A program made the translations under genes and the position numbers. A stretch of DNA of 64,000 nucleotides, from assembly GCA_022843265.1 (NCBI GenBank), contig JALHNZ010000003.1, positions 64,645 to 128,644 on the forward strand, read 5' to 3'. The DNA is from Gemmatimonadaceae bacterium. GTDB lineage: Bacteria; Gemmatimonadota; Gemmatimonadetes; Gemmatimonadales; Gemmatimonadaceae. The notes below the pieces were generated by a model that saw nothing but the letters and a program-made list of their open reading frames with translations, was not told where the DNA came from and did not search any database. Numbering within the stretch: position 1 is the stretch's first letter; every line of letters starts with the position of its first letter. Below, piece after piece: positions 7,692 to 60,638 of this stretch.

Positions 7692-7815
7692 CGGCGGACG
7701 CCGCGACGGTCGCCTCTCGTCGAAACGGCTTGAAGGTGTCGCAGAGGGACTGGTCCTCGGATTCCGGGGTACGCAGTTTGACGTGGGGGATGGTGCGTAC
7801 TCCGAACCAGATCAG

Positions 7816-9275: not shown

Positions 9276-9368
9276 CGTCAATCAGACGCGGAGCGATTGA
9301 ACGAGCGGCGCGATTTTTTCATCCATTACGTCTCAGTGCCACCGACTGGCCGAGGTGAACGTATCCAT

Positions 9369-26861: not shown

Positions 26862-26959
26862 GATATAACTCGAAAGGGGCGACGGCGGTAAGTTCAGCCG
26901 TCTGCGGTGCACGCTCTGTAAAGTCTATCGTCGCGCACTCACCTTTGCTGTCTCACTCC

Positions 26960-28060: not shown

Positions 28061-28813
28061 ATGATCGATAAAGAGTTTACCTCGAGTACAGTTGCCAAGC
28101 CCGCTGACGAGTTCGTCACACTCTGCGCGTGGACGCGTTCCGTTAGATACGAAGGGGAATGGATCAGCGTGGAGTCGTATCTGCAGCGCCGATACGGCGT
28201 GCGCACCAGCCACGGCATCTCTCCCAAGGGAGAGACGCTCATCGCCGCCGAGATCGCGCAGCTGACCACGAAGTCTGAAAACACGACGCAGAGCCAGCAC
28301 TCCGCGCTTACAAAACCGCGACGTCTGGCCGCGCTGAATGCCACAGGCCTTCTTGATAGCCCCAGTTCAACCGGGTTCGACCGACTCACCAGAATCGGTG
28401 CCCAGCTGCTCGGCGTATCGACCACCTTCATTTCGCTGGTCGACGAACATCGCGACTTCTACTTGAGCCACTGCGGCTTCGGTGAGCCGCTCGCGTCGTC
28501 ACGCCAGCTCACGGGGCAAACCTTTTGCCACTTTACGATCGAGGGCGAAGTGCCGCTGGTGATTCCGGATACACGCGCGCATCCCGTGTACCGGAATGTC
28601 CCAACGGTGGAATCGCTCGGCGTTGCCGCCTACCTCGGGGCGCCCCTCGTTCTGCTCTCCGGCGAAGTCATCGGGGCGTTTTGCGCGATCGACACGGTGC
28701 CTCACGCGTGGACGGATCTCCAGGTTCGGAATGCCGTCGACATGGCGAGCCTTGTGGTGTCTGAGATCGAACTCCGTCAGGCGTCCGTAGACACCCAGAA
28801 AGGGCGCGAGTAG
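28061..28813 (+). CDS. GAF domain protein with N-terminal degenerate Cys-motif mini-domain
   Basis: The GAF core is FDRLTRIGAQLLGVSTTFISLVDEHRDFYLSHCGF..FCHFTI..PLVIPDTRAHP..VAAYLGAPLV..GEVIGAFCAID. The N-terminus LCAWTRSVRYEGEWISVESYLQRRYGVRTSHGISPKG resembles the iCxxCkkiR..g.W..le.Y......SHGiCPeC module. Confidence 0.8.
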   Translation: MIDKEFTSSTVAKPADEFVTLCAWTRSVRYEGEWISVESYLQRRYGVRTSHGISPKGETLIAAEIAQLTTKSENTTQSQHSALTKPRRLAALNATGLLDSPSSTGFDRLTRIGAQLLGVSTTFISLVDEHRDFYLSHCGFGEPLASSRQLTGQTFCHFTIEGEVPLVIPDTRAHPVYRNVPTVESLGVAAYLGAPLVLLSGEVIGAFCAIDTVPHAWTDLQVRNAVDMASLVVSEIELRQASVDTQKGRE

Positions 28814-43702: not shown

Positions 43703-45796
43703 ATGCGCCGCCTGCTCGCGCTCGCCCTTCCGACACTGCTGTGCACCGTGCTCGCGCCTTCGCGCGCGTCGGCACAAGCGCGCACACTAACTGCCGCTGA
43801 CATTTTTCACATGGAGTACGCGACGGACCCCGCTATTTCACCCGATGGCGAATGGGTGGCGTACGTTCGGCGCTGGAGCGATCCGATGACGGATCGGCGC
43901 TACAGCAACATCTGGGTGGTGAAGAGCGACGGCAGCGGGCATCGCGCGATTACCTCGGGCAAATACAACGAAACCTCGCCCGTGTGGTCGCCAGACGGAC
44001 AGCGACTCGCGTTCGTCTCCGATCGCGGTGATCGCCCGCAACTGTGGGTGCGTTGGATGGACACCGGTGACGCGCTCGCGATCACCAACGGCAGTGATGC
44101 ACCGAGTGCGCCCGCGTGGTCGCCCGATGGCAAGCAGCTCGCGTTCTTCAAGCTGGTGCCGCAGCCCGCGCTGGTTGTTGGCACACCACTGAAGCCGCCC
44201 GCGGGCGCCACGTGGTCGGCCGCGCCCAAGTACACGGATCGCCTGGTATTCCGACAAGATCAGATTGGCGAACTTCCCACCGGTTTTGTGCACGCCTTTG
44301 TCGTGCCGTCTGAAGGTGGCACACCACGGCAGGTCACCAGCGGCGACTTTCATCACGGCGGGCAGGTGTTTGGTGGCGGTTCGCTCGTGTGGACGCCAGA
44401 CGGCGCCGAGCTCGTGATGCCAGCGCGACGTGGTGACAATCCGGAATGGAATGCGCGGGAAACTGACGTGTACGCGTTTGCCGTGAGCAATGGCAACGTG
44501 CGACAACTCACCCAACGATTCGGCCCTGACATGAGCCCGGCGGTTTCGCCCGACGGCCGACTCATTGCGTATGTCGGGTACGACGATCGCAAGCAGGGCT
44601 ATCAGAACACGCTGCTATACGTCATGAATCGCGATGGCAGCGGCGCGCGCGCTATTTCCGAGAAGATGGATCGCAGTGTGTCGAGTCCGGTGTGGAGCAG
44701 TGATGGGCGCGCCGTGTACGTGCAGTTTGACGACGAGGGCAACACCAAAGTGGCGCGTATGTCACTTGACGGCGCATGGACCGTGGTGGCGCGCGATCTT
44801 GGCGGTGGCAACTCCGCCTACAGTGGCGGCAGCTTTTCGGTATCACGCAATGGCAGCATTGTCGTGACCGCGAGCACACCCACGATTCCGTCTGAACTGA
44901 TGTTGTTGCGAGCGCCGTCAAAGGAGCCGTCAACCGCGCGTAACAGCGCGCCACCACCGCCGGTCACACTCACCGCAATCAACGCCGATGTGCTCGCGGG
45001 CAAAACGCTCGGCGCTGTAGAAGAAATCTGGTACGAATCGTCGAAAGACAAACGCAATATTCACGGCTGGATCATCAAACCACCCAACTTTGATCCGTCG
45101 CGCAAGTACCCGCTCATCCTTGAGATTCACGGCGGACCGTTTGCCAACTACGGCGATCGCTTTGACGAAGAAAAACAGATCATGGCGTCGGCCGGTTTTG
45201 TGGTGCTCTACACCAATCCGCGCGGCAGTACGAGCTACGGTGAAGAGTTTGGCAATCTCATTCACCACACGTATCCGGGCGACGATTTTTACGATCTCAA
45301 CGCCGGCGTTGATGCGGTGATTGCGAAGGGCTACATCGATGAGCACAACTTGTACGTGACCGGTGGCAGTGGCGGCGGTGTGCTCACCGCGTGGATGATC
45401 GGACAGACCGATCGTTTCCGTGCTGCGCTCGCGTTTTATCCGGTGATCAACTGGGAGAGTTTTGCACTCACGGCAGACATGGCACCGAGCGCGGTGAACA
45501 ACTGGTTTCCCGGATTTCCGTGGGATCACCCGGAGAATTATGCCAAGCGTTCACTGCTGTCGGTTGTAAAGAATGTGAAGACGCCAACGCTCATCATGAC
45601 CGGCGAAGAAGACTACCGCACACCCATGTCGGAGTCGGAGCAGTACTACAAGGCGCTCAAAATGCGCGGTGTGCAGTCGGTGCTGGTGCGTGTGCCTGAT
45701 GAACCGCACGGGATTCGTCGTCGTCCGAGTCACGCCGCGTCGAAGCTGACCACGCTGGTGGGATGGTTCGAAAAGTATCGCGCGACGGTGCAGTAG
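43703..45796 (+). CDS. S9 family serine peptidase (prolyl oligopeptidase/acylaminoacyl peptidase-like) with TolB-like beta-propeller
   Basis: The signal is MRRLLALALPTLLCTVLAPSRASAQ. PD40-like repeats are ISPDGEWVAYV, WSPDGQRLAFV, WSPDGKQLAF and VSPDGRLIAYV. The nucleophile elbow is VTGGSGGG, and the catalytic Asp/His region is GEEDYRTP..VPDEPHG. Confidence 0.85.
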   Translation: MRRLLALALPTLLCTVLAPSRASAQARTLTAADIFHMEYATDPAISPDGEWVAYVRRWSDPMTDRRYSNIWVVKSDGSGHRAITSGKYNETSPVWSPDGQRLAFVSDRGDRPQLWVRWMDTGDALAITNGSDAPSAPAWSPDGKQLAFFKLVPQPALVVGTPLKPPAGATWSAAPKYTDRLVFRQDQIGELPTGFVHAFVVPSEGGTPRQVTSGDFHHGGQVFGGGSLVWTPDGAELVMPARRGDNPEWNARETDVYAFAVSNGNVRQLTQRFGPDMSPAVSPDGRLIAYVGYDDRKQGYQNTLLYVMNRDGSGARAISEKMDRSVSSPVWSSDGRAVYVQFDDEGNTKVARMSLDGAWTVVARDLGGGNSAYSGGSFSVSRNGSIVVTASTPTIPSELMLLRAPSKEPSTARNSAPPPPVTLTAINADVLAGKTLGAVEEIWYESSKDKRNIHGWIIKPPNFDPSRKYPLILEIHGGPFANYGDRFDEEKQIMASAGFVVLYTNPRGSTSYGEEFGNLIHHTYPGDDFYDLNAGVDAVIAKGYIDEHNLYVTGGSGGGVLTAWMIGQTDRFRAALAFYPVINWESFALTADMAPSAVNNWFPGFPWDHPENYAKRSLLSVVKNVKTPTLIMTGEEDYRTPMSESEQYYKALKMRGVQSVLVRVPDEPHGIRRRPSHAASKLTTLVGWFEKYRATVQ

Positions 45797-45804
45797 GTCG
45801 CGGG

Positions 45805-46818
45805 GTGAGCGCCAACAAGAGCAAACGGTGGTGGTGGATCGGAGCGCTGCTCGTTCTGGTCGTCACCGTTGTCGCGGGACCACGCGCGCAGGTGACCACC
45901 GCAGTAGTTCACGCCACCGAGTCTCGCTGGCCCACCGATTTTCGCGCCTGGCACGAATGGCTTGCGACACGAGAACGCAACGCTGGTGTCACCGACACCG
46001 CCAACGCCGCGCGCGTAGTGTTCGCCAACGGCGATACAATGCCGGCACGTACGGCCTGGAGCGTGGTGTACCTGCACGGTTTCTCCGCAACGCGACAGGA
46101 GACCGCACCGCTCGCCGAGCTGGTCGCGCAACAACTCGGGGCCAACTTGTTCGAGGCGCGTCTGCGCGGGCACGGTCTACCCGGCGATTCCATGGGTGTT
46201 GTCACAGCCGAAGACTGGCTACAGGATGCGCAGTTCGCGCTCGACGCTGGTCGCCAACTTGGTGACTCCATCCTGGTGATCGGGACATCAACCGGCGGCA
46301 CGCTTGGTGTGTGGCTGGCCACGCTGGCGCGCGAACAGCGCGCGGGACTCGCGGCGCTTGTGCTTGTGTCGCCCAACTTCGGCCCCAAGGACAAGACCGC
46401 TGCCGTGCTCACGTGGCCGTGGGCGCAACAGCTGCTGCCTCGGTTCATTCCGTATCGCGAATGGACGCCGCGCAACGAGGAACAAGCGCGCTACTGGACG
46501 GTTCGTTATCCGTCAACGGCGCTGTTTCCCATGCAGGCGTTAGTGGCACATGTGCGCGCGCGTGCGCTCGACGAATACGACACGCCAACGCAAGTGTTCT
46601 ACAATGCGAATGACGAAGTGGTTGATGCGGAACGCATTGCGAACTGGTTGGACGCTGTGGCTGCACGCACGAGCGCACGACTGCAACAGATTCGCATTGC
46701 GCCGTTGGCCGATGAAGACGGCCATGTGCTGGCCGGCCGCATTGTTTCGCCAAGTCAGACCGCACCAATACGCGATAGCATCGTGGCATTCGTGCGGGGC
46801 ATGAATTCGGGCCGCTGA
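45805..46818 (+). CDS. Alpha/beta hydrolase
   Basis: ORF 45763..46818. GTG 45805 lies 9 nt after the S9 stop and gives a TM/signal segment KRWWWIGALLVLVVTVVAG. The sequence has VVYLHGFSAT and the nucleophile elbow GTSTGG. Confidence 0.7.
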   Translation: MSANKSKRWWWIGALLVLVVTVVAGPRAQVTTAVVHATESRWPTDFRAWHEWLATRERNAGVTDTANAARVVFANGDTMPARTAWSVVYLHGFSATRQETAPLAELVAQQLGANLFEARLRGHGLPGDSMGVVTAEDWLQDAQFALDAGRQLGDSILVIGTSTGGTLGVWLATLAREQRAGLAALVLVSPNFGPKDKTAAVLTWPWAQQLLPRFIPYREWTPRNEEQARYWTVRYPSTALFPMQALVAHVRARALDEYDTPTQVFYNANDEVVDAERIANWLDAVAARTSARLQQIRIAPLADEDGHVLAGRIVSPSQTAPIRDSIVAFVRGMNSGR

Positions 46819-46947: not shown

Positions 46948-49206
46948 TTACGGCAACTGACCGATGTGTTCAAGAAGCGCACGGTACGACGGATTTTCGC
47001 GCAGCTTGCGAAACGCCGGCCGCGATGACACCCACACGAGATCGCTCGCGTGTTCATCGAGACTCTGCTGCAAGCGTGCCAGCGCACCGGGCGTATCGCC
47101 CAATGCCGCCAGAATCTCGGCGCGTGATACCTGCGATACGTACCGCGTTCGCGCGCGGGCATCCAGGTCGGCCAGAATCGTTGTCGCTGCGTTCGTATTG
47201 CCGGCATTGGCCTGCACCACGGCACGGAACGCCAGCGGCTCAACACTGTCGCCGAGAATTGTGGACGCCGTCGACAAACACTCAAGCGCCAGCGTGACTT
47301 CACGCTGCGCATCGAACGCGCGTCCGAGAAAGTAGTGCGCCATGCCAAACTGCGGATCGCGCTCCAGCACCGCGCGGAACGAGCGAATCGCGGCCAGCTG
47401 GTTGCCTTCGGCGTGAAACGACACGCCAATGCTGGTGGCGATCACCGGGGAGAGCGGATCGAGTGCGCTGGCACGCGACAGATGCTCACGCGCCTCTTCG
47501 AAGCGACGCTGTGGCACCAGCAGGTTCATGGCGTACGACTGCAATGCCGTGGCCGTTGCCTGCGGCGCGTTGACCGCGAGTTCAAAGTCGGATTCAGCGT
47601 TCGTATTGGCCCAGTCGTGCAGTGCGCTTACAGATGCGCGGGCGACCAATGCATCGGTATAGCCGGGGCGCAGCGCGAGTGAACGCTCGGCCGCAACCAG
47701 TGCGCGCTGCATGAACGGCGTGGGGGCCTCAATGCCGTACACAGCAAGCGTAATGCAGGCTTCCGCCAACGCGGCGTGCGCGGCCGCGAACGCGGGATCG
47801 CGCTCAACGGCGCGCTGCAACAGGTCAACACTGCGCCGCAATGCATGCGCTGTGCGCTGGTTCCAGCAAAAGCGACCTTCGAGAAACAACTCGTAGGCCT
47901 TCATGTCGTTGGTTGACGCCACCACCACCTGCTTGGCACGCGGACGCAGCGTGCCCTCAAGCGAGACCACAATGCTGTGCGCGATTTCATCCTGCACCGC
48001 AAACACATCGATGAACTCGCGTTCGTATCGCTCGGACCAGCGTTCAAAGCCCGTTCGCGTGTCGATCAGGCGTGCCGTGATGCGCAAGGTATTGGAATGC
48101 CGGCGTACACTGCCTTCGAGCACCGACTCGACCTTCAGCGCGCTGCCGATGTCGCGCACATCCACGTCAGTTTTGCGGAACCGAAACGACGACGTACGCG
48201 CCACCACACGCAACCCACCCTTTTGCGCGAGCGCATGAATGAGATCGTCGCTGATCCCTTCGCTCAAATATTCGTCGGATGTATCGCCGCTGAGATTGGC
48301 AAACGGCAGCACCGCAATGGACGGCGCGACGGCGGTGTATTCGCTCGTGGTCAAGGGAATAGAGACCGTGGTGCTCCCGTCTCCTTCGAGGTCCGCCAGC
48401 AGACTGGTGATGTCGGGATAGCGCAGTGTCACATCACGCAACAATCCGCGGCGCAGCACCGCGGGCACGTGCGATGGGATGCCGCCGTCTATCAAGGTCA
48501 GCACCGGCGCTTCTTCGTGGTTCTTGCGCACCATCATGGCCATCGGCGACAGATCAGTCCACGGCGTCCGTCCGCTCAACATCTCGTAGGCGACGCTGGC
48601 CAACGCGTACACATCGGTGCGCTCATCAATGTCTTCTTCGCCGAGTGCCTGCTCGGGACTCATGTACTCCGGGGTGCCAATGCCGTGCCCTTCGAGCGTG
48701 AGACGCTGGCCGGCCGTTGACATCACCCGCGCAATGCCGAAGTCGGCCACCACGGCGTGCCCTGCAAAGAAGAGAATGTTCTCGGGTTTGATGTCGCGGT
48801 GCAACACGCCGCGCCCGTGCGCGAACGTGAGCGCATCGCCTACTTCGCGCAAAATGCCGAGGGCCACAGACCACGGCAGTGCGTGCTCACGATCGAGACG
48901 GCCACGCAGCGTTTCCCCTTCCACGTACGGCATGGTAAAAAACAGAGCGCCGTTGGCTTCGCCCGAATCGTAGACCGACAGAATATTGGGGTGCTGCAGT
49001 CGGGCCGCGGTCTCGATTTCGCGCGCGAACCGCTGGCTGTCGCCCTCTTCGCCAAAGCTGGCGCGCAACACCTTGACCGCCACCGGCCGGCCGTGTCGCA
49101 GGTCGGTGGCCAGATACACGTTTGCCATGCCGCCGCGACCGATCAGCCGATGCAGGTCGTAGCGGTCTTTCAGGGCCGTGCGAAGTGCAACAAACGACTC
49201 GTCCAT
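46948..49206 (-). CDS. Ser/Thr protein kinase with TolB-N-like and TPR C-terminal region
   Basis: Hanks kinase blocks are LIGRGGMANVYLA, VAVKVL, HRDIKPENILF, DFGIA and GTPEYMSPEQ. These are followed by IAVLPFANLSGD..GISDDLIHAL and TPR-like repeats. Confidence 0.85.
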   Translation of the reverse strand: MDESFVALRTALKDRYDLHRLIGRGGMANVYLATDLRHGRPVAVKVLRASFGEEGDSQRFAREIETAARLQHPNILSVYDSGEANGALFFTMPYVEGETLRGRLDREHALPWSVALGILREVGDALTFAHGRGVLHRDIKPENILFFAGHAVVADFGIARVMSTAGQRLTLEGHGIGTPEYMSPEQALGEEDIDERTDVYALASVAYEMLSGRTPWTDLSPMAMMVRKNHEEAPVLTLIDGGIPSHVPAVLRRGLLRDVTLRYPDITSLLADLEGDGSTTVSIPLTTSEYTAVAPSIAVLPFANLSGDTSDEYLSEGISDDLIHALAQKGGLRVVARTSSFRFRKTDVDVRDIGSALKVESVLEGSVRRHSNTLRITARLIDTRTGFERWSERYEREFIDVFAVQDEIAHSIVVSLEGTLRPRAKQVVVASTNDMKAYELFLEGRFCWNQRTAHALRRSVDLLQRAVERDPAFAAAHAALAEACITLAVYGIEAPTPFMQRALVAAERSLALRPGYTDALVARASVSALHDWANTNAESDFELAVNAPQATATALQSYAMNLLVPQRRFEEAREHLSRASALDPLSPVIATSIGVSFHAEGNQLAAIRSFRAVLERDPQFGMAHYFLGRAFDAQREVTLALECLSTASTILGDSVEPLAFRAVVQANAGNTNAATTILADLDARARTRYVSQVSRAEILAALGDTPGALARLQQSLDEHASDLVWVSSRPAFRKLRENPSYRALLEHIGQLP

Positions 49207-49307
49207 AGGTGAAAGTTACACTGGCCGAAAGTTTGGTGTGCAAGCTCGCTCAATGACCTCGCGCACCCTACATTCTGCGCACCCTGAGCACACTGGAGCG
49301 GTGACTG

Positions 49308-50564
49308 ATGGACCCACGATGGGCGGACGATGCGTTCCTGGACGAGCTGCGCGCGCACACTGACGCCGCGGCAGACGCGTGTGTGGCGGCGCTGGATGTC
49401 CACAAAGACTACGCCGACCTGTTCAAACAGGCGGTCGCCAACGATTCGGTGCTTCCGGCCGACGCGCCCCCGGCGCTGCGTGAGTTTTTTGCTACCACCG
49501 ACAACCAGCTCTGGCTGGAGACGGATCGCGATCGGTTTCCCGACGGACTGGATCATGAGCGCCTCAAACGGGGCGAGCGCGTTTATCTCGATCACGCGTT
49601 TTTTGCGTCGGTCGTACTGCTCGCGAAGTCGCTGCCCGAAGGGTACGCCGCGCCGTGTTTGTCGAGTCTGCTGAATCTGTCCGGGAATCTTCGCACGGAG
49701 CCCTACCGTCGTCTGCTGGGCGTGCTGCAGCTGGTCGTCGATGTCTCGTCGGTCGATGGGTTCGACAAGAGTGGACGTGCACTGGCGGCCGCTCGGCAAG
49801 CGCGGTTGATGCACGCGGGCATTAGACGATTCGCACCCCGAATGCTGCCGAACTACGTGACGATGTACCGCGGCGCGCCGGTCAACTTCGAAGACATGCT
49901 CGGCACCATCATGGGGCTTTCGCTGCTCGTAATTGACGGTTTGCCACGATTGGGAAACGCGTTGTCCGACCAGGATGCGGGCGACTACTACTACCTGTGG
50001 CGCGCGTTCGCGGTGGCCATGGGCATTCATCCGCCGGGCGAAGAAGGCAGCGCCGCATGGGTTCCGGCCACCATCGAAGAAGCGCGCATTTTCTACCAGT
50101 CGTACGAGCGTCGGCATTATGAGCACGACCCGGCGAAGAACCCTGACGGGGTCGCGCTGGCGCAGGAGAACCTGGCAATGCTGCAGCATTTGTTGCCCGG
50201 ACCACTGCGTTTACCGGGACTGCGCCTGATACCCGATTTTTTCATGACGCAGCTCATCGGCGATGAAGGCTGTCGTCGCGTGGGACTCACACCGCATCAC
50301 GTGCCCTACGGCCTGCACGGCGTGGCGGTTGGTATTGTGAGCGGTCTGGTTGGATTAGGTCGATGGTTTGACCGCCACGACCCGGGCGGTACGCTGCATC
50401 CCACTATTTCCACGATGCTGCTTCAGGATATGATCAAACGCGAGTACGGCGGGATCGTGACGTTCGAAATTCCGGAATCGATCACACAGGTTCAGGATCT
50501 TGTGCGGAAACGGCGTGCCGATGCCGAAAGAGCAGCAAATACATCGCGTCCAGCAGCACTGTGA
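49308..50564 (+). CDS. Probable MpaB/DUF2236-family oxygenase-like protein
   Basis: 418 aa. LLAKSLPEGYAAP, LRTEPYRRLLGVLQLVVDV, ARQARLMHAGIRRF, GAPVNFEDMLGTIMGLSLLVIDGL and YYYLWRAFAVAMGI resemble my recollection of DUF2236/MpaB family blocks. The 3' end overlaps the convergent gene by 83 nt. Confidence 0.5.
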   Translation: MDPRWADDAFLDELRAHTDAAADACVAALDVHKDYADLFKQAVANDSVLPADAPPALREFFATTDNQLWLETDRDRFPDGLDHERLKRGERVYLDHAFFASVVLLAKSLPEGYAAPCLSSLLNLSGNLRTEPYRRLLGVLQLVVDVSSVDGFDKSGRALAAARQARLMHAGIRRFAPRMLPNYVTMYRGAPVNFEDMLGTIMGLSLLVIDGLPRLGNALSDQDAGDYYYLWRAFAVAMGIHPPGEEGSAAWVPATIEEARIFYQSYERRHYEHDPAKNPDGVALAQENLAMLQHLLPGPLRLPGLRLIPDFFMTQLIGDEGCRRVGLTPHHVPYGLHGVAVGIVSGLVGLGRWFDRHDPGGTLHPTISTMLLQDMIKREYGGIVTFEIPESITQVQDLVRKRRADAERAANTSRPAAL

Positions 50565-51210
50565 TGGCGCACAGCGACAACAGAAAGTGATTGGACGGAT
50601 ACACGAGCATGCAGAATAGCGCGCCGCATGTGTTGCCGAGCAGCTTGGCCCAGCCAACGGTGAGCGAGTATTGGCTGGCGTGTACTTCAGACAGTTCGAC
50701 CAGCACGTACAACGTGGACATGAACAGCGCGACAACAAACATGGAAATCATGCCGTTCGATGTGTCGTACGGCTGATACGAAAAAAGCGATTGATCCGGT
50801 GCGTATGACTGGTAGGGTTGGTACGCAAACAGATACACAAGAATAAGCCAGCACAGATAACTCGCCACGAGCCCCGGTGCAAACCAGCGTCGCACTTCGG
50901 GAAGACGCACGTGACGCGCGCCGTACAACAGCGTGTAGCCAAACACCGTTGCGGCCACGAGCAGCGCGCCTCGATTCAGCCATACGAACAGCGTGCCCAG
51001 ATCCGTTCGGTAGAGCAGTCCCCAGGTGGTGATCCACGCCAGATTGCTTGCGACTGCCGCTGCCGGGATCTCCACCACACCATGCGCACGCATGTTGCGG
51101 AACACCATCACAAACGCAACCGCCCAGGCCGCATAACCGGCCAGCAAGAACAGCAACGGCGTCATCGCATATACCGAGGTGTTCAGCAGCATATCGCTCC
51201 CGGTGTTCAT
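50482..51210 (-). CDS. Integral-membrane Pyr4/PaxB-like terpene-cyclase-family paralogue A (motif Glu replaced)
   Basis: 242 aa with ~7 TM segments. VEIPAAAVASNLAWITTWGLLY carries NxAW but Ile replaces Glu. YGARHVRLPEVRRWF and C-terminal CAITVLLDAMYLLLF (Asp retained) are also present. It is paralogous to 51207..51908. Confidence 0.6.
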   Translation of the reverse strand: MNTGSDMLLNTSVYAMTPLLFLLAGYAAWAVAFVMVFRNMRAHGVVEIPAAAVASNLAWITTWGLLYRTDLGTLFVWLNRGALLVAATVFGYTLLYGARHVRLPEVRRWFAPGLVASYLCWLILVYLFAYQPYQSYAPDQSLFSYQPYDTSNGMISMFVVALFMSTLYVLVELSEVHASQYSLTVGWAKLLGNTCGALFCMLVYPSNHFLLSLCAITVLLDAMYLLLFRHRHAVSAQDPEPV

Positions 51211-51908
51211 GTTGCCACCTGCGCACTCGTTGCCGCGTCACGCTCATCTCGCTGCGATGGACGGCGTGTATGCAACAGCGCGATGTACACGACATCCAGA
51301 AACAGCGTGATGCCGCACAGGCTCAGCAGAAACAGATTATCTCGACTCATGATGAGCGCAAAGACGCTGAGCAGTCCTGTGCCGATCATTTTGCTCCATC
51401 CCACCAATGGCGAAAAGTCGAGCGCGTTGCCCTGTAGCAGGAGCACGATATACAACGCCGACATCATCACATTGAGCACGTAGCCGGTGAGTGCGCCGTA
51501 TCCATTGTCGTAGCCGCCCGACACAAAGAAGTAGATCACCACGCCCCACGCGAGAATGCCAAAGGCCAACGCGGGTTTGAACCAGCGCCGCAAGTGCGGA
51601 TTGGCAATCTGCTTATGTCCGTACTTGAAGGTGGCGTACGTGATGAACACATCCTGCACGCACCACAGCGCGTAACCAACCGTGAACGCGAAACCCATCG
51701 TGGAACCAAAGATGAACCCCCAGACAAACTCCCACGCAATGTTGGCCGCGACGGCCGCCGCGGGAATCTCAACGACCTTTCGTTTGACGATCGTGATGGC
51801 CGTGCCGATGTAGGCAACCACCCATCCAATGCAACCGGCCGCAAACAGAATCAGCTGCGGGATCGTAAAGTCAACGGTGTTGAACCACGGCTGTGTGAGC
51901 GTGAACAT
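51207..51908 (-). CDS. Integral-membrane Pyr4/PaxB-like terpene-cyclase-family paralogue B
   Basis: ORF 51207..52037. ATG 51906-51908 shares 1 nt with the upstream gene's stop. GCIGWVVAYIGTAITIVKRKVVEIPAAAVAANIAWEFVWGFIFG matches the recalled GW..NY.G..Y....D..YGM.I.PL..N.AWE[FI]VY block of Pyr4/PaxB. ITYATFKYGHK and CGITLFLDVVYIALL are also present. Confidence 0.65.
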   Translation of the reverse strand: MFTLTQPWFNTVDFTIPQLILFAAGCIGWVVAYIGTAITIVKRKVVEIPAAAVAANIAWEFVWGFIFGSTMGFAFTVGYALWCVQDVFITYATFKYGHKQIANPHLRRWFKPALAFGILAWGVVIYFFVSGGYDNGYGALTGYVLNVMMSALYIVLLLQGNALDFSPLVGWSKMIGTGLLSVFALIMSRDNLFLLSLCGITLFLDVVYIALLHTRRPSQRDERDAATSAQVAT

Positions 51909-54900
51909 CAGGTCGCTGCTGCCTTGGCGGTAAGAAGTGTCTGCAAACTGCGAGCGGCGCGATGCACCAGCATGGGAGCTTGCCTGGCGCTGGCGCGTGA
52001 GACCGCCAACTGCAGGCTGATCTCGGCGGCGTCCCACTGCCCCGTGTCGCGCAGAATCTCTCCGCGCAGGCGCGCCAGCTCAGCATCCCAGTTGTGTTCA
52101 CCGGTTTCAAGCATAAGCCGGTCGGCATCGTCGAGTGCTTCCAGCGCCGCGCCATGGCTGCCGCTTCGCCAGTGCGCCTCGGCCAGCAACCAGAAGAAGT
52201 GCGTGGTGCCAATTTTTGACCCGCCCATAAGAAACATCTGCAGCGACGAGGCAATGGCAGACGCATCGTTGCGCGCCCACCCCAGATATGCCGCGGCGAC
52301 CGGGGCAATAAACAACCCGTACTGTTCCGCCAGCTCAAGCGTCTTGCTTCCGTGCAGTATGACGGCCTGACGATCTCCCTGCGCGGCTGCTACCCAGCAC
52401 GCAGAGGTTTCCGCAACGGAAAGGCTGAACGGGTGATTGATGCGCGCAGCTTCTTTCAGTGCGAACGCTTGCAAGCGTTCGGCTTCGGCCACGTCGTCCA
52501 TCATCCACGCACATTCGGAGGCGAGCGACGCGGCCGCCACCACGATATCGAGCGCCGTGTACACGCGGGAATGTTGCACTCGATCGGGATAGTCCATGGC
52601 CAGCACGGCATGCAAATGCTCGCGCGCGGCGGGAAAGTTGCCGAGGAAACGGTGCGTGGAGCCGACGCAGTACAGCGCCTCCATACGCAACTCGCGCGCG
52701 CCGTTTTCGGAAATGCGCATAAGCCGTTCGGCCAGCTCGAACGCGCGGGGCAGATTACCCGACACGTACGTGGACACCCACAGCCCCACAATTACCCAGA
52801 ACAGTTCGTCTGCGTCATCAAGACGCTCGCAAATTTCGTTGGCGTGCGCATACGCGGCCACAGTTTCCGGCGCGGCGTACCCACGCGTTGAGGAATACGC
52901 GGTGGCCAGCATGGTTAGGGTGCGCAGTTCCAGCGGATCACGCTGCGGCCCGGAGGGCAGGGACTCGATCAGGGTGTGCGCGCGCTTGAGCTGTGACATT
53001 GCCTCGAGCAACGCCGACCGTTCCATGGCGCGCATGCCCGCCCGGGTCCAGGCGTGTACCGCGTCGTGCGTGCGCCCCGCTTCGGCCAGGTGATGCGCCA
53101 CCAACTCCGGTTGCTGTTCGGCCAGCGCTGCAAACTGTGTTTCAATGACCGTGGCTACGCGATCGTGCAGCACTCGACGCGTACTGCGCAGCAGCAGCGC
53201 GTAAGCCGCTTCCTGAATGAGCGCGTGTTTGAACGTGTATGTGGCGTTGGGTGCACTGCCGCGCTGATAGAGCAGTTCCGCATCTACCAGCACCGCGAGC
53301 TGTTCACGCAGTGTGGGTTCGTCGTATTGCGACACTGCCAGTACGAGATCATATCCAAAGTTGCGCCCCAGTACGGCGCCCACTTGGGCAATGTCTTTTG
53401 CATCACCCAGGCGATCGAGGCGCGCCAGCAGCGAGTCCTGGAGCGTTTCCGGCACTTCCATCAAATGCACCAACGACGCGGCGTCCACCCGCGCTCCACC
53501 TTCGACCACGCCGAGCTCCAGCATCATGCGCGTGAGCTCTTCCGCGAACACCGGAATGCCATCGGTTTTCTGTACCACCTGTGTGATCAGTGCAGCCGGC
53601 AACTTTTTATCGCCCGCCAGCTGCGTGATCAACGCGCGCACATCCTGATCACTCAATCGCGACAACGTCAGGTGCGACACATGCGATCGGGAACGCCACG
53701 GCACGGTAAAGTCTGGGCGAACGGTGAAGATGGTCAACAAGCCGGGCACAGGCGGCTGCTCCACAAGCAACGTGAGAAACTCCAACGTTGACGGGTCGGC
53801 CCAGTGGAGATCTTCCATCACCAACACCAACGGCTTGCGCTCGGCCGCACGCACCAGCACTTGCACTACCATGTCGAGCGTGCGCTGCTTCCGCACGTGG
53901 TTTTCAATGTGCGTGCGCGGGTAGTCGGCGCTCAGCGGTGTGGAAAGCAGCGGCGCGAGCAGCGGAACAGCCGCGTGTTTGTCGAGCGCCAGCTCGGCAA
54001 CAAATGCTTCGATCAATCGCAGGCGTTCGTCGGGGGTTGCCTGATCATCAAATCCGATCATGCCTTCCAGCATATCGGCCACCGGCAGCAGCGCGCTGCT
54101 TTGATGCACCGCCGCAGAGCGTCCCACAATGCACGTGAAGCCCTCTTCCTGTGCCCGCATGCGCGCCGCTTGCACCAGACGTGACTTGCCGACACCCGCT
54201 TCGCCGCTCAGCAACACAATGAAGCCGTTGCCCTCGCGCGTGGCACTGAGTCGGCGCGTGAGCAGCCCCAGTTCTTCGTCGCGTCCGATCAGCGGGCTGA
54301 GTCGCCGCGCGTCATCGAGCTCAAATCGTCCGCTCCGGCGTGCCTCGCGCAGCACCTGATACACCGTGACCGGGCGCGACACACCGCGCAGTTCTTTGGT
54401 GCCCAGATCATCGAGCTCAAACCAGCCCTGCAACAATCGCTGCGTTTCACCCGAGAGCAGAATGCCATCGGGCTCGGCAATGCTTTGCAGTCGCGCCGCG
54501 ATGTTTGGTGTGGAGCCGAGTGCGAGTCGCTCGCGTGTGGAACCACCGCCCACTTCGCCGGCCACGACTGATCCGGTGTGAATGCCAATGCGCACCGACA
54601 GCGCACCGGCGCCGGTGGCGGCCACGGTGCGTGCGTTCAGGGCGCGCATGGCGTCGAGAATGCCAAGGGCGGCCAGGGCCGCGCGTCGCGCGTCGTCTTC
54701 GTGTGCCTGCGGAAAGCCGAAATACACCAGCAGTCCGTCGCCCAGATACTGCGCAATGTGTCCGTCAAATCGTGCAATCGCTTCGGCGCAGGCGAGCTGA
54801 TATTCGCGCACGAGATCGCGGTACACTTCGGCGTCGAGGTGATCGGCCAGCGAGGTTGAGTCTACCAGATCGCAGAACAGCACCGTGAGCTGGCGTCGTT

Positions 54901-55267
54901 CGCCGTCGGCCCGATCGAGGCGAAACTCCGGGAGTGTGCTGGTGGGGGCAGAGGCGACAGGCTCCGCTGATGCCGCTGCGGGAGCGAACGGCGCGGCTGT
55001 TTCCGCGGCCTTGCCCGGAACGGCCGATGCGAGGCTTTCGCCACACCCACCGCAGAACTTGAACGTGGCGGGGTTTTCAAAGCCGCACGCGGCGCAGGAG
55101 CTGGGCAAACGCGTGCCGCATCCACCGCAGAAGCGCATGGCCGCGGAGTTTTCAAAGTCGCATGACCCGCAACGCTTAATCACCGGTTTACCAGCCGAAT
55201 GTGGTTGGTCGCTTCTAGATGAGCTCGGCGAATCTACAGGCTGCGGGTGTGGCGGGCCAGACGGCAC
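51908..55267 (-). CDS. Double zinc-ribbon + class III adenylate/guanylate cyclase + STAND P-loop ATPase + TPR signalling protein
   Basis: 1119 aa with a GTG start at 55265-55267 (uncertain). Zinc ribbons are CGSCDFEN..FCGGCG and CAACGFEN..FCGGCG. Cyclase blocks are RQLTVLFCDLVDST, IAQYLGDGLLVYFG, VRIGIHTGSVVAGEVG and GSTPNIAARLQS. The Walker A is LSGEAGVGKSRL and the Walker B-like block is LVLVMEDLHWAD, followed by a long TPR-like C-terminus. Confidence 0.85.
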   Translation of the reverse strand: MPSGPPHPQPVDSPSSSRSDQPHSAGKPVIKRCGSCDFENSAAMRFCGGCGTRLPSSCAACGFENPATFKFCGGCGESLASAVPGKAAETAAPFAPAAASAEPVASAPTSTLPEFRLDRADGERRQLTVLFCDLVDSTSLADHLDAEVYRDLVREYQLACAEAIARFDGHIAQYLGDGLLVYFGFPQAHEDDARRAALAALGILDAMRALNARTVAATGAGALSVRIGIHTGSVVAGEVGGGSTRERLALGSTPNIAARLQSIAEPDGILLSGETQRLLQGWFELDDLGTKELRGVSRPVTVYQVLREARRSGRFELDDARRLSPLIGRDEELGLLTRRLSATREGNGFIVLLSGEAGVGKSRLVQAARMRAQEEGFTCIVGRSAAVHQSSALLPVADMLEGMIGFDDQATPDERLRLIEAFVAELALDKHAAVPLLAPLLSTPLSADYPRTHIENHVRKQRTLDMVVQVLVRAAERKPLVLVMEDLHWADPSTLEFLTLLVEQPPVPGLLTIFTVRPDFTVPWRSRSHVSHLTLSRLSDQDVRALITQLAGDKKLPAALITQVVQKTDGIPVFAEELTRMMLELGVVEGGARVDAASLVHLMEVPETLQDSLLARLDRLGDAKDIAQVGAVLGRNFGYDLVLAVSQYDEPTLREQLAVLVDAELLYQRGSAPNATYTFKHALIQEAAYALLLRSTRRVLHDRVATVIETQFAALAEQQPELVAHHLAEAGRTHDAVHAWTRAGMRAMERSALLEAMSQLKRAHTLIESLPSGPQRDPLELRTLTMLATAYSSTRGYAAPETVAAYAHANEICERLDDADELFWVIVGLWVSTYVSGNLPRAFELAERLMRISENGARELRMEALYCVGSTHRFLGNFPAAREHLHAVLAMDYPDRVQHSRVYTALDIVVAAASLASECAWMMDDVAEAERLQAFALKEAARINHPFSLSVAETSACWVAAAQGDRQAVILHGSKTLELAEQYGLFIAPVAAAYLGWARNDASAIASSLQMFLMGGSKIGTTHFFWLLAEAHWRSGSHGAALEALDDADRLMLETGEHNWDAELARLRGEILRDTGQWDAAEISLQLAVSRASARQAPMLVHRAARSLQTLLTAKAAAT

Positions 55268-55317
55268 GGTCGGAACGCCCGCGCGAACCCATCGGACCTC
55301 AGCGGGGTTCGTAGCGC

Positions 55318-56193
55318 ATGACTCATCGCTTCATCAGCAAAACATTCGCCGCGGCGGCGGTCGTTCTGCCGCTTGTGCTCGGCGGCTGCGCCTCGCTGGC
55401 GCTGGGCGCCGCCAATCTTATCGAGAACGGCAACGCGCCCTCCACTGAACTCGCGTACGGTGACGGGGCGCGTCAACGGTACGATGTGTATCGCCCGGTC
55501 GGAGCTAGTGGGGAGCTGCTTCCTGGTCCGCTGCCCGTGGTCATTTTTGTGCATGGCGGCAGTTGGGAAACGGGAGACAAGGGCTCGTATCGGTGGGTGG
55601 GGCAGGGCATCGCGGCGCAGGGATTTATTGCGGTGTTGCCCAACTACGGCCTCATGCCGGAGCGTCGCTTTCCAGGGTTTGTCGACGATGCCGCGCGTGC
55701 CGTTGCGCATGCCCGCACGCAGCTCACCGCGTGGGGCGGCGACACGTCGCGCGTGGTGCTGATGGGGCACAGCGCCGGTGCGCACATTGCGGCGCTTGTA
55801 GCCTACGACGCTCGGTATCTGGCCGCGCACGGGCTCACGCCGCGCATGTTCTCTGGTTTTGTGGGGCTGTCGGGTCCGTACGATTTCATCTTCGACACGG
55901 AGCTGCTCCAGCGCACGTTCTCAGGTACCGCCGCACAGGAGTATGATGCGTTGCCGGTGCATTTTGCATCGCCCCAGTCGCCGCGCACGCTGCTCGTGAT
56001 GGGACGCGATGACAGCACCGTCAAACCCCGCAACACACACGCGCTCGCTGCGCGGCTCGGCCAAGTGGGCACACCGTTTGACACGCTGTGGGTCGACGGA
56101 ACACACGGCGTATCCGTCAGTGCGTTTGCGCGCCACAATCGTGGTGACAGTGAGATCCTGCGACGCGTACGGGAGTTTGTGTTGGCGCGTTAG
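55318..56193 (+). CDS. Alpha/beta hydrolase (esterase/lipase-like) lipoprotein
   Basis: The lipobox is LPLVLGGCAS. The oxyanion block is VIFVHGGSWETGDK and the nucleophile elbow is LMGHSAGAH. Confidence 0.75.
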   Translation: MTHRFISKTFAAAAVVLPLVLGGCASLALGAANLIENGNAPSTELAYGDGARQRYDVYRPVGASGELLPGPLPVVIFVHGGSWETGDKGSYRWVGQGIAAQGFIAVLPNYGLMPERRFPGFVDDAARAVAHARTQLTAWGGDTSRVVLMGHSAGAHIAALVAYDARYLAAHGLTPRMFSGFVGLSGPYDFIFDTELLQRTFSGTAAQEYDALPVHFASPQSPRTLLVMGRDDSTVKPRNTHALAARLGQVGTPFDTLWVDGTHGVSVSAFARHNRGDSEILRRVREFVLAR

Positions 56194-56285: not shown

Positions 56286-57161
56286 TCACCGTCTTGGAAC
56301 CAGCCGTAGCTGATGCGACAAAAACGGCGTCATCTCTGCTTCAAAGAGTGGCACGTTGTTCCATGCCGCGTGTCCCTGGCCCGTGAGCGTCACGAGGCGA
56401 TGCGTGACGCCAACTTGTGCGGCGCGTGCCACCAACTGCTCAGCCTCAACGTACGGCACCGTCGTGTCTTCCGTGCCGTGAAAAATGAGCACAGGCGGAT
56501 CACCCGCCTGCATGACGGAGTCTGCGGCACCAGGGAGACTGCCCCAGAAATTCACGACGGCCACCACATCTGACGAGAACCCCGGGTTTCCGCTCATGCC
56601 TTCGCCCCACGCATTTTCGTAGGCCGCGAACAAGGCCGTGATGCCGCCCGCTGAACTTCCCACCACGGCAATCCGCGATGTATCCAGTTTGAGTGCGCTG
56701 CGACTGGCGCGCACCCAGCGTACTGCAGCGCGTGCATCATGCACCGCGTCACGAATTCCGCTCATGGGATCAGCGTTGAACGCCGTTGGCGAGCGCAGTC
56801 GATAACTGATGGACACGCTCACGTAACCGCGAAGCGCCATCGATCGCGCGAGCCTTGGGATCTGCCCATCAGTTCGTGTGCCGGAGACAAATCCTCCGCC
56901 GTGGATCCACACCAGCACCGGACGCGCTGAGGCGGTGTCTCCGGTGGGTGTGTAGAGGTCGAGCAGCAACGGCGCGGGGCTTGTGCCTCCGGCGGGCACA
57001 GATGCGCCGTAGGTGATGCCGGTTTGCGTGGTCGCGGCGTTAAACACCGTGTCGACGTAGCGCGTTTTTTCCTGTACGTCGTCGAGCGGCACCGTGGCTG
57101 ACGACGTGCAGGCGGCAAGGGCAGCGACAACAGTAACCAGCACGGGACAACGGTATCTCAC
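56286..57161 (-). CDS. Alpha/beta hydrolase (carboxylesterase, fold-3-like) lipoprotein
   Basis: GTG start 57159-57161. The lipobox is VVAALAAC. Blocks are VLVWIHGGGFVSG, VVGSSAGG and the His region LTGQGHAAW. Confidence 0.75.
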   Translation of the reverse strand: MRYRCPVLVTVVAALAACTSSATVPLDDVQEKTRYVDTVFNAATTQTGITYGASVPAGGTSPAPLLLDLYTPTGDTASARPVLVWIHGGGFVSGTRTDGQIPRLARSMALRGYVSVSISYRLRSPTAFNADPMSGIRDAVHDARAAVRWVRASRSALKLDTSRIAVVGSSAGGITALFAAYENAWGEGMSGNPGFSSDVVAVVNFWGSLPGAADSVMQAGDPPVLIFHGTEDTTVPYVEAEQLVARAAQVGVTHRLVTLTGQGHAAWNNVPLFEAEMTPFLSHQLRLVPRR

Positions 57162-57223: not shown

Positions 57224-59638
<2,415 letters not shown>

Positions 59639-59711
59639 GTGGATCGGTGAAACAAGGACTCCGAGCAGTGCTGCGCAAGAGCGCGGGTGCGCGCGGTGCT
59701 ACTTTTCAAAC

Positions 59712-60638
59712 GTGAATCGACGTCGACTGATCTTGTTGGTCGTACTGCCGGTGGCCCTGATCGCAAGCGCCATCCTGCTGTACACACCAGACGCCTCGCG
59801 CAGTGCGCTTGAGGCCCGGTATCTCGAAAGCCCCGCACAGCTGCGCACCATCGCGGGCATGACCGTGCATGTGCGCGACAACGGACCGCGCGATGCACCC
59901 GCGCTCATTCTCTTGCACGGCATGGGCGCGAGTCTGCATACGTGGGAGCCGTGGGCGCACGCGCTCGCCGACAGCTTTCGTGTGATTCGCTTTGACTTGC
60001 CGGGACACGGTCTCACGCCAGCGGATCTCACGGGTGACTACCGCGACGCGCGCAGCCACGAGATACTCGCGGCGCTCATGGACACGCTCGGCGTGACACG
60101 CGCTACGCTGATCGGCAACTCGATGGGCGGCCGCATTGCGTGGTCCTTTGCGGCTGAACGTCCGGAGCGCGTGGAGAAACTCGTCCTCATTTCGCCCGAC
60201 GGTTTTGCCAGTCCGGGCTTTGCGTACGACACACCCGCCGAAGTGCCCGCGTCGATGGGACTGATGCGTTATGTGTTGCCCAGGTGGATGCTACGCATGA
60301 CGCTGGCGCCGGCGTATGCGGATCCGGCGGTGATGACGGATAGCCTTGCCGCGCGTTATCATGATTTCCTGATCGCTCCGGGTGCGCGCGTGGCGATGCT
60401 GGATCGAATGCGACAGACGGTGCTCACGGATCCGGTGCCGCGGTTGCGAAGCATTCAGGCGGCGACGTTGCTGTTATGGGGCGAGAAGGATGCGATGATC
60501 CCGATCAGAAACGCGCAGGATTATCTGGATGCGATGCCGAACGCGCGGCTGGTGCGGCTGCCGGGGTTGGGGCATTTGCCGTTTGAGGAGGCGCCGGTAG
60601 CGGCATTGCCGCCGCTGCGCGGGTTCCTGAAAGAGTAG
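59712..60638 (+). CDS. Alpha/beta hydrolase
   Basis: ORF 59619..60638. GTG 59712 gives the TM/signal segment NRRRLILLVVLPVALIASAILL; ATG 59637 is an alternative start. Blocks are LILLHGMGASLHTW, the nucleophile elbow GNSMGG, and GLGHLPFEE. Confidence 0.75.
   Translation: MNRRRLILLVVLPVALIASAILLYTPDASRSALEARYLESPAQLRTIAGMTVHVRDNGPRDAPALILLHGMGASLHTWEPWAHALADSFRVIRFDLPGHGLTPADLTGDYRDARSHEILAALMDTLGVTRATLIGNSMGGRIAWSFAAERPERVEKLVLISPDGFASPGFAYDTPAEVPASMGLMRYVLPRWMLRMTLAPAYADPAVMTDSLAARYHDFLIAPGARVAMLDRMRQTVLTDPVPRLRSIQAATLLLWGEKDAMIPIRNAQDYLDAMPNARLVRLPGLGHLPFEEAPVAALPPLRGFLKE

Follow-up and report, generated by a model that had tools for sequence, protein, structure and literature searches.

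A Pyr4-family membrane protein recurs beside an MpaB/Lcp-type oxygenase and a signalling protein in several bacterial phyla

Introduction

Pyr4-type transmembrane cyclases have so far been studied only as natural-product enzymes. What role could such proteins have when they are encoded in one run of overlapping genes with a signalling protein, and no gene for terpenoid backbone biosynthesis lies around them? The question is raised by a locus of a Gemmatimonadaceae bacterium (GenBank assembly GCA_022843265.1, contig JALHNZ010000003.1), located in a stretch of 64,000 nucleotides (positions 64,645 to 128,644 of the forward strand), which was analysed as a whole and is hereafter referred to as the window. 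A first-pass annotation, made from the DNA letters alone, had drawn attention to three minus-strand genes, g1, g2 and g3, of which the latter two were read as homologues of the Pyr4/PaxB-type cyclases. We found that the most constant neighbour of g2-like genes across bacteria is a fourth gene, on the opposite strand in the window, which encodes a homologue of MpaB/Lcp-family haem oxygenases, and that this locus is best described as an oxygenase/membrane-cyclase pair coupled to signalling, built from known protein families. The four genes are as follows (coordinates are those of the window):

49308-50564, plus strand: MpaB/Lcp-family haem oxygenase homologue, 418 aa, with a PF09995 match
50482-51210, minus strand: g3, 242 aa, diverged Pyr4-family paralogue of g2
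51207-51908, minus strand: g2, 233 aa from its ATG, Pyr4-family protein with seven predicted transmembrane (TM) helices
51908-55267, minus strand: g1, 1119 aa from a GTG start, double zinc ribbon/class III nucleotidyl cyclase/AAA_16 STAND NTPase/TPR protein

The only survey of bacterial Pyr4-like cyclases that we found in open-access full text (Kakumu and Helfrich, JACS 2026; PMC13307353) started from 1107 sequences and kept the 264 with terpenoid genes within +/-20 kb. The other 843, lacking terpenoid neighbours, were removed, and standalone loci are described in the Supporting Information, which mentions neither MpaB nor DUF2236, as 'unlikely involved in meroterpenoid biosynthesis' (PMC13307353).

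The membrane proteins and the Pyr4 family

The g2 protein matches the Pfam family PF25129 (Pyr4-TMTC) with 64.7 bits against a gathering score of 27 (E 1.3e-17), and the same domain is found in all 95 g2 relatives that we collected, none of which carries a functional name. Using hhalign, we compared a profile of the bacterial relatives of g2 with a profile of 14 fungal Pyr4-family proteins, including NodB and DpmaB from Swiss-Prot; a Pyr4 sequence served only as the probe with which the fungal set was fetched, and the conclusions rest on the database proteins that it returned (P0096-P0137). The two profiles align with a probability of 98.3% (E 2.6e-14) over 198 columns, with 18% identity in the aligned columns, so that, for g2, both profile checks agree with the kinship to Pyr4-type cyclases proposed in the first-pass annotation. 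In the profile-profile alignment, the N56-x-x-W59-E60 motif of g2 falls on the invariant N59, W62 and E63 of the fungal proteins, and D205 and Y208 fall on D218 and Y221. The NIAWE and LD..Y blocks that had been picked out in the first reading thus land on E63 and D218, which are active-site residues of Pyr4 (PMC6486709). The Glu equivalent to E60 is present in all 41 bacterial relatives of g2 that were compared, and a few relatives have Asn in place of D205. Three further acidic residues, E47, D86 and D134, are conserved in the bacterial clade but not in fungi, which have an invariant Asn at the position of D86. Judged from its sequence, g2 is a true Pyr4-family protein with seven predicted TM helices and both active-site acids, and cyclisation of a prenyl chain is its putative activity by family membership.

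An AlphaFold (AF2) model of g2 built on the 41 relatives has a pLDDT of 94.8 and a pTM of 0.87, and consists of seven long helices (residues 16-43, 50-67, 73-100, 110-130, 139-159, 167-187 and 192-232). A sequence search of the PDB with g2 returned noise only (photosystem I PsaF, E 0.08), and no Pyr4-family structure was among the matches when the model was compared to the PDB with Foldseek. Because the structure search could not confirm membership, the family was assigned by profile-profile comparison. The best PDB folds for the model are SWEET transporters and KDEL receptors (TM-score ~0.55, best E 4.8e-3, 12-15% identity), which are not significant matches. Among solved folds, the nearest are those of SWEET, KDEL-receptor and pyruvate-carrier proteins, whose seven helices are arranged as 3+1+3, and the model hints that the Pyr4-family fold might be distantly related to that of PQ-loop-type transporters.

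The g3 protein has no Pfam match by itself, but is alignable with g2 throughout (30% identity, BLASTP E 6e-37). Where g2 has AWEF, g3 reads AWIT, that is, the Glu equivalent to E63 has been lost, together with the clade-invariant D86. Three acidic residues, E47, D149 and D221 in the numbering of g3 (E47, D134 and D205 of g2), are kept, and D221 is invariant among second copies. The notion of a pair of Pyr4-like cyclases therefore stands only in part: g2 and g3 are paralogues and g2 belongs to the Pyr4 family, but g3 does not look like an equivalent cyclase. Besides g3, loss of the Glu and of D86 is confined to the second copies of its closest relatives, L001 and L005, whereas second copies in other Gemmatimonadota, Acidobacteriota and Bacteroidota retain both residues, which suggests that g3 is a recently degenerated copy. 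Given that the catalytic Glu is absent, g3 most likely serves g2 as a non-catalytic partner subunit. The g3 protein also carries a Y/Q/P-rich insertion of 15 residues, YQPYQSYAPDQSLFSYQPY (aa ~133-147), in the predicted loop between TM4 and TM5, which is absent from all other aligned copies.

An oxygenase encoded next to the membrane proteins

The first-pass annotation had reported no prenyltransferase, epoxidase or terpene synthase nearby. As to backbone genes this is correct, but the MpaB/Lcp-family gene at 49308-50564 had been overlooked. Its product matches PF09995 (MPAB_Lcp_cat, also known as DUF2236) with 44.2 bits against a cutoff of 23 (E 3.2e-11), and aligns with the latex-clearing protein LcpK30 (5o1l/5o1m; phmmer E 2-3e-7). 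H169 aligns with the proximal haem ligand H198 of LcpK30 and R135 with R164; K167 of Lcp is not conserved. A hydrophobicity scan detected no TM or other hydrophobic segment, and the acidic N-terminus, MDPRWADDAFLDEL, has no RR motif. Since there is neither a hydrophobic segment nor a Tat-like N-terminus, the oxygenase is predicted to be cytoplasmic and to resemble fungal MpaB in this respect, not the rubber degraders that are secreted. Those MpaB/Lcp enzymes that have been characterised use O2 to cleave C=C bonds of isoprenoids. A preprint on 'cytochrome P422', at first considered relevant to this family, was set aside: it concerns DUF6875 and not DUF2236.

Conservation of the gene neighbourhood

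To place the locus in a broader context, one genome per species from 185,579 species was scanned with a peptide pattern derived from the g2 clade, which yielded 52 loci. These span about eight phyla and include Gemmatimonadota, Acidobacteriota, Bacteroidota, Ignavibacteriota, Acidimicrobiia, Fibrobacteria and a few Proteobacteria. Neighbours were counted by tblastn with the window proteins and domain probes, because greedy longest-ORF (open reading frame) calls gave spurious antisense ORFs in the high-GC loci. An MpaB-like gene lies within 2.3 kb of the Pyr4-like gene in 42 of the 52 loci and is the most constant partner. In eight further loci, all from Bacteroidota, the gene directly upstream of the Pyr4-like one encodes, in place of the MpaB-like protein, a flavin amine-oxidase-family protein of 560-660 aa, which in NCBIfam comes closest to HpnE, zeta-carotene desaturase and phytoene desaturase, with every score below cutoff. 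This flavoenzyme is C-terminally membrane-anchored (6226-7974 in L022, 4521-6191 in L045 and in six other Bacteroidota loci). Only two of the loci have neither the oxygenase nor the flavoenzyme, and a second Pyr4-like copy is present in 14.

When the neighbouring ORFs were clustered, only the oxygenase family and a merged signalling/TPR cluster recurred besides the Pyr4-like genes. No prenyltransferase, polyprenyl synthase or terpene synthase is recurrent in the 52 loci. In the window, the ~15-20 kb on each side of the locus hold hydrolases, peptidases, two Ser/Thr kinase-TPR proteins, a channel and MgtE; no polyprenyl synthase, UbiA/ABBA prenyltransferase, terpene synthase or polyketide synthase (PKS) is encoded there, and the g2/g3 locus thus lacks the context of a meroterpenoid cluster. 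The neighbourhood is conserved vertically within phyla and does not belong to a variable island. The linkage of cyclase-STAND and membrane genes, on which the first-pass reading had been staked, recurs in Gemmatimonadota, Acidobacteriota, the metagenome-assembled genome (MAG) L019, labelled Deltaproteobacteria, and the metagenome contig L058.

The signalling partner

At least 45 of the 52 loci encode a signalling protein adjacent to the Pyr4-like gene, when HisKA_2 kinases that escaped the probes are included; those without one are mostly incomplete contigs and Acidimicrobiia. The position of this partner is constant and its kind is variable. In Gemmatimonadota it is a cyclase-AAA_16-TPR protein, as in the window, and in Acidobacteriota the same core is preceded by an N-terminal Ser/Thr kinase (for instance, Pkinase-DZR-cyclase-AAA_16 in the 1435-aa protein of L004). 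The partners in Bacteroidota and Ignavibacteriota, encoded directly downstream, are Pkinase-AAA_16-TPR-GAF-PP2C, Pkinase-AAA_16-TPR-GAF-cyclase or AAA_16-TPR alone; others consist of a multi-TM domain fused to a HisKA/HisKA_2 histidine kinase, PP2C or a class III cyclase. In the Bacteroidota kinases, this multi-TM sensor domain resembles MASE7 weakly, with a score below cutoff.

The arrangement also holds in contigs with independent gene calls. In a Caldithrix MAG, genes for REC-PP2C, MpaB-like, Pyr4-like and Pkinase-AAA_16-TPR proteins follow each other in this order; L058 carries a Pyr4-like gene, a TonB receptor gene and genes for DZR-cyclase-AAA_16 and MpaB-Patatin; and the trio was confirmed in a marine contig. 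In L058, the TonB-dependent receptor gene (6722-8821) directly follows the Pyr4-like gene, and a 1255-aa protein (12289-12705 and beyond) joins MPAB_Lcp_cat to a Patatin lipase domain.

Pfam matches to g1 agree with the architecture initially described for it, namely, two zinc ribbons, a class III cyclase, a STAND ATPase and TPRs. The domains map to the window as follows:

55040-55171, minus strand: double zinc ribbon of g1, aa 33-76 (PF12773 DZR, 2.7e-8)
54356-54895, minus strand: class III cyclase domain of g1, aa 125-304 (PF00211 Guanylate_cyc, 2.2e-21)
53732-54295, minus strand: AAA_16 STAND NTPase of g1, aa 325-512 (PF13191, 3.6e-22)
51911-53410, minus strand: C-terminal helical/TPR region of g1, aa ~620-1119 (TPR_12 and TPR_2 matches)

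The zinc ribbons contain four CxxC pairs (C33/36, C47/50, C58/61 and C72/75). The P-loop NTPase has a Walker A motif, GEAGVGKS (355-362), and a Walker B motif, LVLVMED (480-486), and is followed by a C-terminal repeat arm, the arrangement that defines a STAND protein. TPR matches extend to residue 1091, and the C-terminal region, presumed to be a sensor or partner-binding arm, is shared with orthologs at 29-65% identity. A hydrophobicity scan of g1 predicts no TM segment, and there is no DNA-binding domain among its Pfam matches.

The first-pass annotation had considered the cyclase domain catalytically intact. Alignment with Pseudomonas aeruginosa CyaB (3r5g; E 6e-25) bears this out as far as the chemistry of the active site is concerned: the motifs FCD133, LGD177G and PN255IAAR259 are present, the metal residues D133 and D177 and the transition-state residues N255 and R259 align with those of CyaB, and all four are conserved in Gemmatimonadota orthologs of g1. 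The domain thus looks catalytically competent. The base-specifying positions, however, are occupied by Gln173 and Leu248 and correspond neither to the canonical Lys/Asp(Thr) pair for ATP nor to Glu/Cys for GTP, which is why the nucleotide specificity of g1 is not readable from its sequence. Mycobacterial Rv0386 likewise has Gln at the Lys position. In five Acidobacteriota orthologs (L004, L011, L012, L017 and L055), which carry the N-terminal Ser/Thr kinase, the cyclase domain no longer has its metal-binding Asp or the Asn, and appears to be a pseudo-cyclase kept as a structural module. It follows that the conserved core of the signalling partner is the STAND-TPR part and not synthesis of a cyclic nucleoside monophosphate (cNMP).

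Fusions of the Pyr4-like domain

When 1.84 billion cluster representatives were searched exhaustively with a profile, 1,183 members of the Pyr4-like family were retrieved at E<=1e-3, of which 716 reached E<=1e-10 and 129 reached E<=1e-30. Among them are long fusion proteins in which, according to Pfam, the Pyr4-TMTC domain is N-terminal. The C-terminal outputs include a class III cyclase (P0216), HisKA-HATPase (P0178 and P0225), GGDEF-EAL (P0208) and PAS-REC (P0234), whereas in P0206 the Pyr4-TMTC domain is joined to MPAB_Lcp_cat, with an Ala/Pro-rich linker between the two. Two further TMTC-cyclase fusions, P0289 and P0290, were found at 46-53% identity; P0290 comprises nine member sequences and is found on a 3.15-Mb contig of a Chlorobiota MAG. 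In the genomes that carry these two, an MpaB-like gene lies immediately upstream and TPR-cyclase genes flank the fusion gene. The fusion sequences that we retrieved keep, by eye, the Glu of the W-E motif and the Asp of D..Y.

Five of the fusion proteins (P0216, P0178, P0208, P0234 and P0209) have in common a middle domain of ~250 aa (residues ~230-480; 21-41% identity), and because this homologous domain is common to five, frameshift or assembly artefacts are ruled out as the origin of the signalling fusions. The middle domain, which is cytoplasmic, also occurs in L060-L062; it has no Pfam match and no homologue in the window or in the other loci. Apparent fusions of Pyr4-TMTC to TonB receptors (P0157 and P0272) are probably merged calls of neighbouring genes, as found side by side in L058, and were not used.

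Organisation of the locus and its surroundings

The coordinates and junctions of the three minus-strand ORFs were re-read in the sequence and agree with the fused junctions described initially. The TGA of g1 (51908-51910) and the ATG of g2 (51906-51908) have base 51908 in common, and g2 and g3 overlap by 4 nt (g3 ATG 51208-51210, g2 TGA 51207-51209). The two junctions, and the kinase gene on the other side of the oxygenase gene, are:

51906-51910, minus strand: TGATG junction of g1 and g2, in the sequence GACC TGATG TTC
51207-51210, minus strand: ATGA junction of g2 and g3, in the sequence GCAAC ATGA AC
46948-49206, minus strand: Ser/Thr kinase-TPR gene, divergent from the oxygenase gene (Pfam Pkinase, 8.8e-44)

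In the relative L001 (70% identical), the 4-nt overlap of g2 and g3 is kept and g1 and g2 are separated by 8 nt. Stop/start overlaps are common in operons and unremarkable by themselves; it is recurrence across phyla, and not the overlap alone, that raises this neighbourhood beyond chance. The two junctions point to joint production of g1, g2 and g3. A consensus scan of 49000-55700 for promoters and terminators gave no signal above chance. GC content at third codon positions is ~0.71-0.72 in g1, g2 and g3, similar to the remaining window.

The g3 and oxygenase genes are convergent and their 3' ends overlap by 83 nt (50482-50564); at the equivalent site of L001 the overlap is 59 nt (9327-9385). 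Such an overlap could influence transcription termination or give rise to antisense effects. Two paralogous Ser/Thr kinase-(FlgO/TolB-like)-TPR genes, 46948-49206 and 57224-59638, flank the locus. The former, divergent from the oxygenase gene, may be associated with the module, but its position is kept only in Gemmatimonadota loci (L001, L006 and L007); the g1 orthologs of Acidobacteriota instead include a kinase domain of their own. Four genes for alpha/beta-hydrolases of BD-FAE/esterase types (45763-46818, 55318-56193, 56286-57161 and 59619-60638) surround the module. Since this arrangement is not seen in L001, they are probably incidental, a lipid-related role being possible. At ~23 kb from g1, a type I phosphodiesterase/nucleotide pyrophosphatase gene (26945-27979) and a stand-alone GAF-domain gene (28061-28813) are possible cNMP-related genes, at too great a distance to be linked to g1.

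What might the module do?

The adjacency of the oxygenase and Pyr4-like genes in 42 of the 52 loci, the substitution of the former by an isoprenoid-desaturase-like enzyme and the direct fusion in P0206 make it almost certain that the 7-TM protein and the oxygenase are functional partners. The many signalling architectures encoded next to them, and the fusion of the Pyr4-like domain to several outputs, tie this pair functionally to signal transduction. We put forward, with about even confidence, that the locus is an instance of a widespread three-part module in which the processing of an isoprenoid is read by a signalling partner. The module would consist of a cytoplasmic MpaB/Lcp-type haem oxygenase, or an HpnE/phytoene-desaturase-like flavoenzyme in some Bacteroidota; one or two Pyr4-family 7-TM proteins with a putative intramembrane Glu/Asp active site; and a signalling protein. 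The oxygenase and then the membrane cyclase would act in sequence on an isoprenoid, by oxidative cleavage or oxidation of a C=C bond followed by acid-catalysed cyclisation. Because no backbone biosynthesis genes accompany the module, the substrate is likely to be an endogenous membrane isoprenoid. A squalene-type lipid is one candidate, and the obvious ones are carotenoids and polyprenyl quinones (through their tails), given that both enzyme families include members acting on prenyl chains attached to aromatic groups or on polyisoprene. Occupancy of the 7-TM protein, or its product, would be sensed by the partner; in the window, g1, which may form a complex with g2 and g3, would turn the lipid cue into a cyclic nucleotide. 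The 7-TM protein is favoured as the input because the fusions place this domain at the N-terminus, the usual position of input domains.

Several considerations weigh against this interpretation. Assignment to an enzyme family is no proof of cyclase activity, and the one line of evidence for the direction of signalling is the domain order in the fusions. Gln173 and Leu248 leave even the nucleotide made by g1 uncertain, and the STAND proteins of several Acidobacteriota have a cyclase domain without the metal-binding Asp and the Asn, so that a cNMP cannot be the universal output. Four Acidimicrobiia loci (L049-L052) have the Pyr4-like gene and, in three of the four, the oxygenase, without an adjacent signalling gene. 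Finally, our counts describe the clade selected by the peptide pattern and not all bacterial Pyr4-like proteins.

Wiring in the opposite direction is the alternative that fares best, although we consider it unlikely. Here the STAND/cyclase protein would sense a cytosolic cue through its TPR arm, and the membrane proteins and the oxygenase would be regulated outputs that remodel a membrane isoprenoid, an arrangement that includes the earlier idea of the membrane proteins as effectors of the STAND protein. STAND proteins typically sense by C-terminal repeats and act by N-terminal effector domains, the genes would be co-transcribed with g1 first, and the conserved synteny fits this direction equally well. 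Yet in all the fusions the Pyr4-like domain is N-terminal, with the histidine kinase, cyclase or GGDEF-EAL at the C-terminus, which disfavours the effector idea; very different outputs have the same neighbour, as expected if that neighbour supplies the signal; and none of the domains of g1 is of a kind known to act on membrane enzymes.

Less likely again is a cryptic meroterpenoid or terpenoid pathway, in which the cyclase and the oxygenase would tailor a product whose backbone genes are located elsewhere, with g1 as a regulator resembling the TOMM-type kinase/cyclase proteins annotated near clusters for ribosomally synthesized and post-translationally modified peptides (RiPPs). All characterised Pyr4-family enzymes are indeed biosynthetic cyclases, g1 resembles TIGR03903, and MpaB shortens the farnesyl chain on the way to mycophenolic acid. 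Nevertheless, no backbone gene is found in the ~15-20 kb around the locus and none is conserved in the 52 loci; a compact module extending from Gemmatimonadota to Bacteroidota, Calditrichota and Acidimicrobiia is unlike a sporadic biosynthetic gene cluster (BGC); g1 has no DNA-binding domain; and want of such neighbours is what led Kakumu and Helfrich to set aside 843 of 1107 bacterial Pyr4-like genes.

Slightly more doubtful still is the possibility that the 7-TM proteins are not enzymes at all, and instead act as SWEET/PQ-loop/KDEL-receptor-like transporters of, or receptors for, a small molecule made by the oxygenase, as the best Foldseek matches of the g2 model (SWEET and KDEL receptors at a TM-score of ~0.55) could be taken to imply. 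These fold matches fall short of significance, with a best E of 4.8e-3 and 12-15% identity, whereas by sequence profile g2 is a firm member of the Pyr4 family and has both catalytic acids. Anti-phage defence of Pycsar or STAND type, with an infection-triggered cyclic nucleotide and membrane-disrupting TM effectors, is the weakest alternative and very improbable: g1 is a STAND NTPase and its cyclase domain matches PADLOC PycC models (best 2.3e-19), but these matches reflect general class III cyclase homology, the PADLOC scan gave generic cyclase and kinase similarity only and no Pycsar system, g2, g3 and the oxygenase match no PADLOC defence model, the partners are conserved enzymes with apparently intact active sites, many orthologs have a degenerate cyclase domain, and the neighbourhood is vertically conserved outside any variable island.

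We therefore retain the three-part module with the 7-TM protein as its input. A bolder version of the same reading, which we regard as possible yet doubtful, would have the Pyr4-type fold recruited as an enzyme-derived sensory input that, together with an O2-dependent haem oxygenase, makes a cyclised lipid signal from bulk membrane isoprenoid. This signal, or catalysis itself, would switch cyclases, kinases, phosphatases and cyclic di-GMP enzymes, and the modules would constitute a so far unrecognised family of signalling systems based on lipids derived from apocarotenoids or quinones, which report oxygen, redox state or the photo-oxidative state of the membrane in several phyla.

At least one large clade of 'context-less' Pyr4-like genes is hence not orphaned, in that its members have constant oxygenase and signalling partners and are sometimes fused to each of them. 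The clade comprises ~1,200 representatives at 50% identity from Gemmatimonadota, Acidobacteriota, Bacteroidota, Ignavibacteriota/Chlorobiota, Calditrichota and Acidimicrobiia. If the function is as proposed, membrane isoprenoids would be linked by a new route to second messengers and to protein phosphorylation, the many orphan kinase/cyclase-STAND-TPR proteins of soil bacteria would gain a candidate class of ligands, and censuses of signal transduction a new membrane input domain. The first reading knew of no described system with this architecture, and we found none in the open-access literature either: the association, sought under Pyr4-like/PF25129 or under MpaB/DUF2236/Lcp with terpene cyclase, is not described in open-access full text, although such absence is not proof.

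Comparison with known systems

The individual parts nevertheless have recognisable relatives. With the Pyr4/PaxB/AusL-type cyclases (PF25129), which in bacteria include XiaH, TylF, GroF and ZigF of the zig cluster, g2 shares the family, the 7-TM form and the acids equivalent to E63 and D218. The clade of g2 differs in its additional acids E47, D86 and D134 and in its identity of only 18% to the fungal family. It is also located outside BGCs, without the usual prenyltransferase and epoxidase neighbours, and is paired instead with an MpaB/Lcp oxygenase and a signalling protein, sometimes being fused to signalling domains. The oxygenase resembles MpaB/MpaB' and Lcp in its PF09995 match and in keeping the proximal haem His (H198) and R164, and differs from Lcp by the low similarity (E ~2e-7) and by the absence of a twin-arginine signal and of K167.

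The closest curated family of g1 is NCBIfam TIGR03903, 'TOMM system kinase/cyclase fusion protein' (1e-169), with which it has the cyclase-AAA_16-TPR core in common. The score of g1, 566.9 bits, is below the cutoff of 705.75; model positions 270-1267 are aligned, the kinase part is absent and no TOMM genes lie within the ~15-20 kb on either side. Mycobacterial Rv0386-type proteins are likewise cyclase-ATPase-TPR proteins, but carry a LuxR helix-turn-helix that g1 lacks. Compared with both types, g1 alone has two N-terminal zinc ribbons and is translationally coupled to putative membrane enzymes. In the fusions, lastly, the Pyr4-like domain is reminiscent of MASE-type input domains, being an N-terminal 7-TM domain in the membrane with interchangeable outputs; it differs from them as a member of an enzyme family with catalytic residues and, in the window, as a separate polypeptide.

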